In this document: positions 41,341-46,263 of the stretch, piece by piece
Numbering within the stretch: position 1 is the first letter of the stretch
Layout: the number at the start of each line of letters is the position of its first letter
DNA from: a virus
Taxonomy: Duplodnaviria; Caudoviricetes
Strand: one strand, 5' to 3'
Virus record (IMG/VR): IMGVR_UViG_3300028048_000065
Span: 85,499-149,498 of that record
Length of the DNA stretch: 64,000 nt
Position numbers and translations under genes: made by a program
The notes under the pieces: model-generated
What the model saw: the letters and a program-made list of their open reading frames with translations, nothing else
What the model was told of the DNA's origin: nothing
The model's database searches: none

Positions 41341-41775
41341 TTAGCCGATTATAAAATCGTAATCTTCTTGGGAAAATTTGTTTTTCTTTAGCAGGTCATT
41401 AAGTTGGTCTTTTCTAATATTACCAACTTTATAAAGTTCTTTAAAAGTCTCTTTCTTAAGAACTATACCATTCTCAATTAACTCATCCATCAAATTTTGA
41501 GATGCAATCATCGAACTAATTTTCTCGTCAGCCATGGTAAGTGAAATTATCGTTCCTTGCTCCATCAATTCACCCGCGCCATCGGTTTCAACAAGAATTA
41601 CCTCACCCCACGAACCATCCATCGCTTGCCCCTCTAAGCTATAAGGAGTGCTATTATACGCAATCCCCTCAGCCTCCTTTAGAACACAAGGAACAAAAAC
41701 ACCATCTTGCTTCTTAATATAAGTGGGAACATCAACTTTTCCAAGGAGCTCTTCCCGTTTGTAAATTCGATACAT
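41341..41775 (-). CDS. Hypothetical protein
   Basis: 144 aa, overlaps the upstream gene, has RBS. Confidence 0.65.
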   Translation of the reverse strand: MYRIYKREELLGKVDVPTYIKKQDGVFVPCVLKEAEGIAYNSTPYSLEGQAMDGSWGEVILVETDGAGELMEQGTIISLTMADEKISSMIASQNLMDELIENGIVLKKETFKELYKVGNIRKDQLNDLLKKNKFSQEDYDFIIG

Positions 41776-42223
41776 TTTTTCCTCCTTTCACTATTTGTAA
41801 AATAATTTTCAAATTGTTTATTGAAGTATTATAAAACTCATAGTTCCAAAGCCAAAAATCTGCATGGTCTTCTCTTTTGAAAGGAAGACAAAATTCGCTA
41901 CTCCAAACTCTATCCCAAGCTTCTAATCTCTTTTTAGATTCTGCTTCTGAACTATTTGGCTTATTTACTAAAATAGAAAAAATCTCATCTATGATTTTTC
42001 CTCTTTCCATACCCTTTCCATCATCGTTTGTAGTGAAATAATCTAAACTAACCTGCGAAGTTACAAATGCAAGGGGAATATCATTATAAAATAGAATATC
42101 TCCCTTACATGAAAGTATAGACCGAGCGGGTATGTTTACATTATCTCTGTTAAGAGATAAACCTCTATATCTCTTACGCGCGACAAAAGTTTTAAAATTA
42201 CTGTGATTATTCTGGGTAGACAT
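41732..42223 (-). CDS. DGR-associated hypothetical protein, paralog of the RT C-terminal domain
   Basis: Aligns by eye with the last ~150 aa of the RT. Confidence 0.75.
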   Translation of the reverse strand: MSTQNNHSNFKTFVARKRYRGLSLNRDNVNIPARSILSCKGDILFYNDIPLAFVTSQVSLDYFTTNDDGKGMERGKIIDEIFSILVNKPNSSEAESKKRLEAWDRVWSSEFCLPFKREDHADFWLWNYEFYNTSINNLKIILQIVKGGKNVSNLQTGRAPWKS

Positions 42224-43937
42224 ATTTTTTATTAACCTTCTTTAAAATTTTTCTTAATTCTTTTTCTGAAGCAAACCACAATGACCTTTTCCAAATCCAT
42301 TCCTTCTCATTCTTTGTGCTTAATCTGTAAGCCTTTGCCTCCTCGCAATTGTTTAGAGCCTTCCATTGTTTTAATCTCGCAGACATCTACTGTTCCACCG
42401 TATACTGAGTCTATTCTAAAATCTTACAGATTAAATTTCCTCTTCTTATTCCATGTCCATCATTATTGATACAATAATGGTTATAAAATGTTTCAGACCC
42501 TATTACACAAATAGCTTTATTCTTTCTAACAAGAAGTCCTTTTCTGCTTTTCAAGCGGGTGTTTCTGCTAATAATAACAGTATTACCAAACAGGTCTTTT
42601 CCGCTAAATGGTCTGTAACAAACATATTCTTCACCTATATCATGTCTATTCTCTTCCATAATTCTATCAATCTCTTTAAACAATTCTGGATTTTTCTTTT
42701 TCGCGTCATTATAATTATACATAAACACATCATCGTAATCGAAACCAAAATACTGTTTAAACATTTTCATTAGCTTTCCTTTTCGATAACTATCGTTCCA
42801 GTTATCATAATAAGAAAAAGAAGATTGCGCAAAGCCTCTTAAGCTTTCGTATGTTCTATTCCCAAGTTCTATCTCTCTTTTAAACATTCTTAATCTTCTT
42901 ACTGCGGCAGGATAAGACTTTTTACTTCCTTTCGTTAAAATCTTTCCGCTTTCTAATATCTTAAATTTAATTTTACAATATCTAAAACTTTTAGTAAAAG
43001 GTATATAAACCGTTTTCTTTAAATTTAAGTTCATTCCATATTCTGAGGCTTTGTCTTTTATCTCTTTAATAAGCTTTTTATAATCAGTGTTTGGAGGAAC
43101 GATTATCCTGTAGTCATCCATGTAATGTGCAGACATTTTAAGTTGCTTTTGGCATAGTAACCAAGTATCCAACAAGGATGGAAAATGTATCATTTCAGCC
43201 TAACTTGGTTCTAACCCTAAAGGCATCCCCTTATCATTCAAGTCAGTTTCATCTAAAACTCTTTCACCCTCGCGGTAAACATAATTACCATTTTTGTCCT
43301 TTAGATACATTTTACCTTCAAAATGTGGATACACATATGCTTCTAAAGCATCTTTAATATTTTCATCAAAGAAATATCTATTATGGTGTTCTTTAATTAC
43401 TTTCTTGTCAGCAGATGGGAAATACTATGAAAAATCTATCAAAATAATCCGACCTTCACGCCCGTATTTCTTATAATGCTCTACAAGGTCTTCTTTTAAA
43501 TTGCTTAAAGAAAAGTGAAATCCTTTTCCGTCAAGACTTGCTCCATTATCATATACCATATGCTTAGTGTATATTGGAAGCAATATTTCTTTTGTGATAA
43601 ATTTGTCTGATTGTCTATCTTGTACTCTTGGTGCAGAAATATATCTTTTCTTTCCTCTTTCTGTTAAATAGAACTTATCATATGGAAATCTAAGATGAAT
43701 ATTTTCTTCAAACTTTTTAATGTTCCTTGCGGTAGAAGAAAATAATGTACTTTTAAAAAGTTGCACACTTCTTTTCCAAGAAACACCAGTGATACACTTT
43801 AAACCATAATAAAACATCAAGGTAAAATCTTTTATCTTATCTTGTAAATTAAGCTATTCGTAATCAGACTTTCTTTTATCTAACCTTTTTTGCTTACGTC
43901 TTTGATAACGCTTTTCTTTACGTTCAGACGAATTCAA
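42207..43937 (-). CDS. DGR reverse transcriptase with C-terminal extension, 576 aa with TAG=Gln
   Basis: TTG start with AGGAG RBS; ERGKKRYI..P..QDR, IDFS, GMPLGLEPS-Q(TAG), HYMDD; ends TAA 42207. Confidence 0.92.
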
Positions 43938-44345
43938 ATTTCGCTCTCCTTTTACTTTTTTATTTTGTTTTTTGCTTATTAAGTTTACTAAAACAGTCAC
44001 CCACGACTACAACCCTAAAGCCCCAAGAACGAAAGAAAAATAAAACCCTTTTGACCGATGAGCAATCCACTGCTCAAAAAAATACTATTTTTTAATTCAT
44101 TCCATTGCACAAGGATAAATCGCTTAAGATTGATACCTGAAATTAAAGAGTGTGCGCCCTTTAACCAGACCAGAAGTGTCCGTATCTCTCTGTGATGACA
44201 TAATTTCGCTTCATAAAATCTATGAAGACGGGAAACATTTCTCCCTTCAATTGCGCTTTTATTCCCCTTAGAACAAGCGCATTAACCCCCTACTAATTCT
44301 AAATTAACTTTCGAGGGGTGGATTGCTCCTTAGTCTTGAAGTCCA

Positions 44346-44473
44346 CACCGCAAAACCAGTCGAGCTGTTCGCGTTGTTATTGTTCGCGTTGCCGTTGTTG
44401 TTCACATTACAGAAATTGTTGGTGTTCGTGTTGTTACATTACACGGAACGCTCCCACCAATTGTTCGCGGAAC
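44346..44473 (-). repeat. DGR template repeat (TR)
   Basis: 128-bp ungapped match to 45256-45383; all 22 mismatches are at TR adenines; AAC/AAT rich. Confidence 0.95.
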
Positions 44474-44510: not shown

Positions 44511-45098
44511 TTAGCCCAATGATGTATAACTATTGACAGAAACATCATAAACTAAGTTTTCTTTCATACCTAAAATTGTATATTGATTTTCTATAATTTT
44601 TCTAAGTAAAGGAGTATAACAAACACCATCTTCCACTTCATTGTATTCCTCTCCAACTTTTTTCTTTATAGCGATTCTAACCTATCTTAAAACGCCTTCA
44701 AGAAGTTTAATTTCCTTTGTCATCATATCACAAATTTTTAAAGCCTCTCCGCTTGAAGGGAGAGTTTTCTTAGCTCCTTCAAATCCGTTATTTGTAATGC
44801 TAATATCATACCCTATACTAAACCAGCTATCCATATTCTTAACTGCACCAATGGCATGATAAATCAACTGCTCTTTATAATATAATCCTTGCAAACTCGT
44901 ACTTGGGGTATAAATTGTATTTATTTCAGACACGGTGTTCATTAAAACATTTAAACTATCTTTTATGTTAGAAAACACAAATTTTTTAGTGTTTGCAGAA
45001 AATCGGTCATAAGACTGACCGACCGCTATTGTTAGATTATATGCAGTATTAATAAATTCTGCTGTACTAACTTTTCTATCTGAGGCGAGAACACTCAT
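44511..45098 (-). CDS. avd: DGR accessory variability determinant (Avd-like), 195 aa with TAG=Gln
   Basis: Helical protein between target and TR starting MSVLASDRKVS; continues past TAG 44682 to TAA 44511. Confidence 0.7.
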
Positions 45099-45240: not shown

Positions 45241-46263
45241 TCACACCCTGAAGGCCACCGCAAAACCAGTCGAGCTGCTCGCGACGCTACCGGCCGCGCT
45301 GCCGTTGTCGTACACAAGACAGAAACGGCCGGTGCTCGTGGTGTCACACCACACGGAACGCTCCCACCAATTGTTCGCGGAACTCTGGCTGGTGGACTGA
45401 TACTTTACTCGACTGTTGCCAAGTTTGTAATACTCAACCTGAACCTGATGGTTTTGTTCGTAAGAATTTGCATAAGTTCTTGCTCCAAAAATCTCAAACT
45501 CGGCAAGCAGATAAAATTTGTCTTGCGTTGTTGTTACATATGAAGCATTATTATTTTGACTTCCACCAGTATAGTTATGAGAATAAATTGTTGATGTTTT
45601 AACAACATTCTTCAACTCAGAGGGAATTGCGCTCTCAAATTGCGGAATTATATTTTTTCTCATGTGGCAATCACGCCACCCACCATCTGTGATACCTGAT
45701 GTATTCATTTGGAAATTGGAGAATAAGGCGATGTCTTTCTTTTCTGTTAGATTGTTTTTAAAGCTATGGAATAAAATACCGCTTCCCTCGACATCTGGGT
45801 TATGGCTAAAACTTGCGATAAATACACCATAAGAGTCGTTAAAGGCTGTATTTGTTATTGTGCCATTTATGGCGACCATCTTTATATCACCAAGAGACCA
45901 CATATTCTAAGCCACTCCTTTGAAAGAGACTTCAGAAATTTGACTCCATGTGCATTCGTCTAAAATTGATGAATAAGGAAATGCTACCACTTCATATAAT
46001 TTACTTTCCTTAATTTCTTTTGTAATAGTATTTATGTTTACCCCATCTGTCGCCGTTATGGTATATTCTCCATATCCCGCTCCATAAAAATCATGGGTTC
46101 CATCCGAAGAAAAGATATAGGATTGTCCCCGTCCATTAAGAGAACAAGTCACTGTGGTCCCCGCCAACGAGGTAACTCTAATTACAATTCCCTCTCCAGC
46201 AGGAATGAGCATATCATACCCCTCCGCTGTTTTTTCCATCATTTGTATTACTTTTGTTGCCAT
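45241..46263 (-). CDS. DGR target protein (DUF6273/C-type lectin-like C-terminus), 340 aa with TAG=Gln
   Basis: Two ORFs join at TAG 45907; WWERS...FCLV...GFAVAFRV C-terminus contains the VR. Confidence 0.85.
45256..45383 (-). repeat. DGR variable repeat (VR)
   Basis: Adenine-specific differences from TR at the 3' end of the target gene. Confidence 0.95.

Follow-up and report, generated by a model that had tools for sequence, protein, structure and literature searches.

A DGR template repeat with an in-frame TAA codon in a clade of phages that read TAG as glutamine

The DGR of Bordetella phage BPP-1, with the gene order mtd-avd-TR-brt, combines a reverse transcriptase (RT) carrying GxxxSQ and YxDD motifs with a template repeat (TR) dominated by AAC and AAT codons and with a variable repeat (VR) at the 3′ end of the target gene, and the differences between its two repeats are adenine-specific. 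The idea that a template should hold no stops is used in DGR-finding software, in the form of AAY filters, and in the engineering of templates for directed evolution. AAY codons in DGR templates avoid stops (PMC4159848; bioRxiv 10.1101/2024.11.15.621889), and stop-prone codons are strongly depleted in natural TRs (bioRxiv 10.1101/2025.03.24.644984). The DGR (diversity-generating retroelement) described here, from a gut phage, resembles that of BPP-1 in its gene order, the adenine specificity of the differences between its repeats, an AAC/AAT-dominated TR, the GxxxSQ and YxDD motifs of its RT and a VR at the 3′ end of the target. Unlike in BPP-1, one codon of its TR is not AAY but an in-frame ochre stop. 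This codon breaks the AAY rule in the strongest way, since it is itself a stop, and it is inherited by a whole clade in which the DGR is, on comparative evidence, still active. In the literature searched, the coverage of which is incomplete and no proof of absence, no paper was found that describes a TR with an in-frame stop. The element departs from BPP-1 in other ways as well. It is carried by a phage of about 215 kb that reads TAG as Gln, which turns one nonsense outcome into sense; its accessory protein has no match to an Avd family model; its RT has a C-terminal extension of about 120 residues; and the domain of its target is DUF6273, the best structural match of which is not a classical DGR lectin-fold protein. 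The TAA codon is real, inherited throughout its clade and in functional use, and it represents an unusual form of a well-known system and not a new kind of system.

All genes of the cassette lie on the minus strand in the order target (with a C-terminal VR), accessory gene, TR and RT. The features below are numbered along the window, which is the whole stretch of 64,000 nucleotides of DNA that was analysed.

45241-46263, minus strand: DGR target of 340 aa, among them one TAG-coded Gln (Q119); an N-terminal Ig-like beta domain and a C-terminal DUF6273 domain
45256-45383, minus strand: VR, the last 128 nt of the target coding sequence before GCC TTC AGG GTG TGA, from the TR/VR alignment
45349-45351, minus strand: VR codon TGG (Trp305), opposite the TAA of the TR in the TR/VR alignment
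44511-45098, minus strand: accessory gene at the place of avd, encoding 195 aa of which one is a TAG-coded Gln, recognized by position and conservation
44346-44473, minus strand: TR, non-coding and adenine-rich (runs of AAC/AAT), from the repeat alignment
44439-44441, minus strand: TR codon TAA, in the reading frame of the VR, from the TR/VR alignment
42207-44012, minus strand: ORF of the DGR RT with six in-frame TAGs and a C-terminal extension, matching RVT_1, phrog_1423 and phrog_29409

The RT carries GLEPSQ at residues 266-271 as its GxxxSQ motif and YMDD at residue 297 as its YxDD motif. The VR sits at the 3′ end of the target gene, 13 nt before the stop codon, and the non-coding TR adjoins the RT gene. 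In the comparison of TRs and VRs over the whole clade, differences are found at 7 of 1180 non-adenine positions as against 55% of adenine positions. Immediately beyond GCGGTG the sequences of TR and VR part ways, which is what IMH and IMH* would lead one to expect. Looked at for a hairpin, the G+C-rich sequence that follows the VR folds no better than shuffled sequence (z = 0.55). With an adenine-specific TR/VR pair, RT motifs of the DGR type and a VR at the 3′ end of the target, the element is a DGR. The accessory protein is kept at 79-95% identity in relatives; it has no match in Pfam or NCBIfam, and its PHROG match is weak only. The C-terminal extension of the RT occupies window positions 42207-42640 and matches phrog_29409, and a 163-aa gene at 41732-42223 overlaps it downstream.

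The C-terminal domain of the target is assigned to DUF6273 (PF19789, E 3.8e-11). The AlphaFold model of the protein has a pLDDT of 80 overall and of about 61 over the VR. In a VIA-align search the best structural match of residues 97-340 (45241-45975) is the N-terminal domain of the Thomasclavelia ramosa IgA peptidase, 9qa6, which superimposes on the predicted DUF6273 domain with Z 12.6 and an rmsd of 3.4 over 178 aligned residues at 20% identity. The Bacteroides fimbrial protein 4eps follows with Z 6.4 against the same residues. Among the structural matches listed by VIA-align there is neither Mtd nor TvpA, and no clear relative of the C-type lectins. Foldseek against the PDB gives matches to the N-terminal Ig-like domain of the target only. 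The last 36 residues of the target hold three beta strands of the domain in the AlphaFold model.

A repeat search of the window finds TR and VR as a 128-nt direct repeat pair (44346-44473 and 45256-45383) with 83% identity. Aligned without gaps on the minus strand, the copies differ at 22 positions. All 22 fall at adenines of the lower-coordinate copy and none at a non-adenine, which makes that copy the TR. On the minus strand the TR reads CGT TCC GTG TAA TGT, with TAA at 44441..44439, and the VR reads CGT TCC GTG TGG TGT, with TGG at 45351..45349; 44439-44441 are the plus-strand positions of this minus-strand codon. The TGG encodes Trp305 of a target of 340 codons and the TAA stands in frame opposite to it, so that an unaltered copy of TAA would delete residues 305-340, 36 residues in all. 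A preliminary description of this DNA had pointed out the codon, its frame and the truncation that a faithful copy would cause, and all of this is confirmed. The other variable codons of the window TR comply with the AAY rule, being AAC, AAT or single-adenine codons that are unable to give stops. Two ordinary roles for the TAA were considered and rejected. It does not terminate avd, which stops at its own TAA 23 codons upstream, and it does not terminate a small ORF, as the short frame between is not conserved in the clade of relatives that have AAT at this site.

The phage reads TAG as Gln, as is seen from a tRNA with the anticodon CTA (CUA), located outside the window at G000:C1:23348-23422 of the same virus record, and from in-frame TAGs in conserved genes. 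Six of these are in the RT and others are present in avd and in the target. One of them encodes Q271 of the hallmark GxxxSQ motif of the RT (window 43200-43202, minus strand), and a TAG-coded Gln in the conserved SQ dipeptide of an RT means that TAG stands for Gln here (code 15). The amber suppressor is part of a cluster of ten tRNAs (G000:C1:23348-30546, outside the window), in which it lies near tRNA-Gln(TTG). Recoding of TAA itself as a sense codon was considered and rejected. No tRNA with the anticodon TTA (UUA) is found in the 149.5-kb virus record, which is estimated to be 69% complete, and TAA is the main terminator, closing 110 of 155 long ORFs, and is therefore still a stop in this phage.

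The exact DNA pattern around the site has no match in IMG/VR. By RT protein, two IMG/VR relatives are found at 85% identity, L001 and L002 (the latter on a 215-kb contig), and their TR reads GTT AAT TGC. A pattern of the TR core yields 51 loci, and the 48 further IMG/VR loci belong to a smaller phage family whose TRs read CCT AAT TCC at the site, with AAT in 46 of the 48 and TAT and GAT in the others. Further contigs of relatives were gathered through the target and the conserved accessory protein and by one metagenome scan; they come from IMG/VR, ENA and Logan and represent several assembly pipelines and different samples. Within the TAG-recoded clade to which the window belongs, TAA is present, as GTG TAA TG(C/T), in all 25 complete TRs and in one partial TR (L088), which together comprise 8 haplotypes from about 25 samples. 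AAT is found at the site in 17 loci among these contigs; it is the codon of a sister clade (16 loci) and of L090. A maximum-likelihood tree was built from the 774 nt that separate VR and TR. A branch with 100/100 support divides its TAA loci from its AAT loci, and on the TAA side the distance between lineages reaches about 0.09 changes per site.

The DGRs of the sister clade (L001/L002, L060, L062, L064 and L091-L100) share with that of the window the cassette, the target family, the recoding, the mutational spectrum, the preference for aromatic residues and a near-identical TR. They differ in having GTT AAT TGC in the TR and in the residues of their VRs at the site, which are Tyr, Phe, Cys, Asp, Gly, Arg, Asn and His but never Trp or Gln. 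The frozen VR of L089 reads GTG AAT TGC here, again with AAT. The presence of AAT in the sister clade, in the distant phage family and in the frozen VR of L089 indicates that TAA is the derived state. TAA arose once, in a lineage that had already recoded TAG. TAT is a plausible intermediate between AAT and TAA. The preliminary description had considered that TAA might track with code 15. TAG stands for Gln in the sister clade just as in the TAA clade, so that recoding does not predict TAA. Nor is the codon a recent lesion of the TR, as was also suggested there, or a change private to one genome, since it is clade-wide and borne by all 8 TR haplotypes. The tree length within the clade, of about 0.07-0.25 changes per site, corresponds to 0.2-0.75 expected changes in three bases, and the conservation of TAA within the clade is thus no more than neutrality would give.

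Two observations on these relatives stand apart from the question of TAA. In the smaller phage family, L040 and L036 have TAT or GAT at the homologous TR codon, so position 1 of the codon varies there too. The locus L089:1146-2271 is without accessory gene, TR and RT, and its VR is frozen with several non-adenine changes (GAG, GAA and CCC codons). Its target is followed by homologues of two genes of the window.

41732-42223: the 163-aa gene, whose homologue comes directly after the target in L089
41341-41775: a 144-aa gene, whose homologue likewise comes after the target in L089

The codons that stand opposite TAA in the VRs of the clade were counted over unique VRs, 19 of which begin with T at the site. 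All VRs are from consensus assemblies.

TGG, Trp: 6 unique VRs, two of them known from proteins only
TTT, Phe: 4 unique VRs
TAT, Tyr: 3 unique VRs
TCT or TCG, Ser: 3 unique VRs
TAG, Gln: 2 unique VRs (L058 and L080)
TTA, Leu: 1 unique VR
CAT, His: 1 unique VR (L088), which requires a non-adenine change
TAA, stop: 1 (L059), a chimeric assembly

The VR therefore varies at this codon, and TAA gives access to Trp and, through TAG, to Gln, beyond what AAY can reach; the access to these two residues had been anticipated in the preliminary description. TGG, TAG, TTA and TCG can be reached from TAA and not from AAT, so that a TAA template must have been the source of many retrohoming events. Turnover of the codon is rapid. 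Six loci from the runs SRR32995889-SRR32996354 encode the same Avd protein and have TTT, TCT, TGG, TCT, TAG and TGG at the site, although the avd regions (774 nt) of five of them are identical and that of L077 is only about 0.1% different. Identical avd regions next to VRs that differ at TR-adenine positions are also comparative evidence that the DGR is still active. In a protein collection searched for homologues of the C-terminal half of the target, four have Trp at the site and two end exactly after ...WWERSV.

The two exceptional codons are accounted for individually. The apparent stop of L059 was considered as a real off state and rejected, as the contig is an assembly chimera of VR and TR. 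It has no difference from L071/L072 over 450 nt upstream, mutated VR codons included; a 21-nt run that is common to the TR follows, and beyond it there is only unmutated TR, up to the end of the contig after another 50 nt. In L088 (1141-1180 and 2051-2090), CAT opposite TAA is a change of T to C and hence a non-adenine difference. It may be a point mutation, or it may be an older codon that stayed in place because the 5′ junction of a retrohoming event lay downstream of it; DGR mutagenesis is known to have an imprecise 5′ boundary (PMC5758913).

The outcomes expected from a T-N-N codon can be calculated from the bases found in VRs at the other TR adenines, which in 14 fully aligned unique VRs are A 0.45, G 0.33, T 0.13 and C 0.09. 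This spectrum is a rough proxy for the raw one, as the VRs from which it derives have already been through selection. It predicts that 35% of T-N-N codons are stops (TAA or TGA) under code 15, and 50% if TAG were a stop as well. Among the 19 unique T-first VRs no stop is observed (P = 3e-4 against the expected 35%), which suggests that truncated forms are removed and that the last 36 residues are needed. The sense outcomes are biased too. Aromatic residues occupy the site in 13 of the 19 VRs (expected fraction among sense outcomes 0.36; P = 0.005), with a weak enrichment of Trp taken alone (6/19, expected fraction 0.17; P = 0.08). Of 14 unique VRs of the AAT clade, 7 have Tyr or Phe where a fraction of 0.075 is expected (P = 3e-5), and at the homologous column of the protein family Tyr is the commonest residue, in 46 of the 102 homologues aligned. 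An aromatic residue is thus preferred at the site in both the TAA and the AAT clade as well as in the protein family at large, and selection repeatedly picks a T for the first position of the codon. A template in which this T is fixed has an aromatic yield per event of about 24%, as against about 8% from AAT.

The TAA is probably a working variable codon, fixed for T and biased towards aromatic residues, the nonsense products of which are purged by selection. In mutagenic retrohoming the T would be copied faithfully and both adenines would be randomised, so that the VR would receive T-N-N. This set would offer Phe, Leu, Ser, Tyr, Cys and Trp, and also Gln, since TAG is decoded in this phage by the amber-suppressor tRNA. 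TAA and TGA outcomes would be true stops leading to the loss of the last 36 residues of the variable domain, and genomes that received them would most likely be removed by selection. The T at codon position 1 would roughly triple the yield of aromatic residues and the A at position 3 would add Trp, which is out of reach of AAY. The cost would be that about one third of the products are nonsense. The raw nonsense rate in this scheme is an estimate, the truncated protein is presumably non-functional, and the aromatic bias would be the cause for which TAA has persisted. From a TAT template the outcome would be more strongly aromatic still (Tyr, Cys, Phe and Ser), and no stops would arise. TAA is therefore not optimal for aromatic residues, and Trp, Leu and Gln are its sole unique gains. 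It is possible, if on the doubtful side, that the template stop is itself a selected design, a nonsense-gated codon that is enriched for aromatic residues, reaches Trp and Gln and automatically discards faithful or half-mutated cDNAs.

The main alternative is that TAA is a tolerated lesion, a single change from AAT to TAA in the ancestor of the clade that has been carried along without benefit, retrohoming being rare and nonsense cheaply removed. This explanation and that of a T-fixed codon with purged nonsense differ only in whether selection favours TAA. A persistence that stays within neutral expectation is what a lesion would show, as is a template that serves the aromatic preference less well than TAT would, and both the mutated fraction and the spectrum are alike in the TAA and AAT clades. 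However, TAA has been kept in at least 6 diverged lineages from about 25 samples although seven further positions of the TR have changed, and Trp, the main residue that only TAA provides, is the commonest outcome at the site. The loss of one third of events to nonsense would moreover be a real cost where the protein is of the tail or receptor type, and one back-mutation, to TAT or to TAC, would suffice to abolish this cost. A mere lesion is accordingly regarded as rather unlikely, though it deserves to be taken seriously.

The codon has also been proposed to be an on/off switch, by which retrohoming would toggle between the full-length target and one of 304 residues, reversibly because the 3′ homing signals stay in the truncated gene. 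Codon arithmetic lends this some appeal, as the same 35% or so of events should write TAA or TGA. Against it stands the absence of any off state from the consensus genomes and from the T-first VRs counted above, the only target contig bearing TAA being the chimeric L059. For a protein of the phage virion, an off state is also more likely to be a dead end than a useful phase, and a switch is improbable. The further proposal of a mutagenesis filter holds that the stop admits only cDNAs mutated at this codon and thereby enriches heavily diversified VRs. Unmutated copies are eliminated as a matter of logic, and correlated mutations at neighbouring adenines have been described in a reconstituted DGR (preprint 10.1101/2025.03.24.644984). 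Yet the fraction of TR adenines changed per VR has a mean of 0.55 in the TAA clade, with the stop codon, and of 0.54 in the AAT clade, without it, over similar ranges, and VRs of the TAA clade such as those of L079 and L081 retain long unmutated runs of AAC. A filter is therefore very hard to credit, more so than a switch. An error of sequencing or assembly, or a change private to this genome, can practically be dismissed, given that different pipelines, in independent assemblies, recovered TAA in one partial and 25 complete TRs, and given VR codons (TGG, TAG, TTA and TCG) that cannot be derived from AAT.

A natural phage DGR that is still active thus keeps a stop codon in its template throughout a clade and is an exception to the no-stop rule. 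The site truly serves as a variable position, in which Trp, Phe and Tyr abound, and stops are absent from it in consensus genomes. The recoding of TAG to Gln takes the harm out of one nonsense outcome among three, and the locus links two unusual features of the phage, codon reassignment and targeted hypermutation. It is a concrete case in which the nonsense load that a DGR can bear may be measured. It also suggests that template codons can be tuned to the chemical preference of a site, and that T-first codons could serve in template design as a natural aromatic bias for libraries.

Some minor observations concern variation elsewhere in the repeats and in the target gene. In L066, L069 and L070, near position 1230, one VR from three samples shows a change of the otherwise invariant WWE motif to WWV (GAG to GTG) at a TR adenine, which implies that mutagenesis extends upstream of the usual variable block. 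The TR of L063 (L063:2060-2190) is without 15 nt, one AAC AAT AAC AAC GCG unit, that is still present in its own VR, either through deletion from the TR or as a collapsed repeat of the assembly. Between L071 on the one hand and L066-L068 and L073 on the other, the 450 nt that lead up to the VR, in the 3′ half of the target, differ by about 15%, while the accessory-gene regions are identical or nearly so. This pattern points to recombination, or mosaicism, of the target gene outside the VR.
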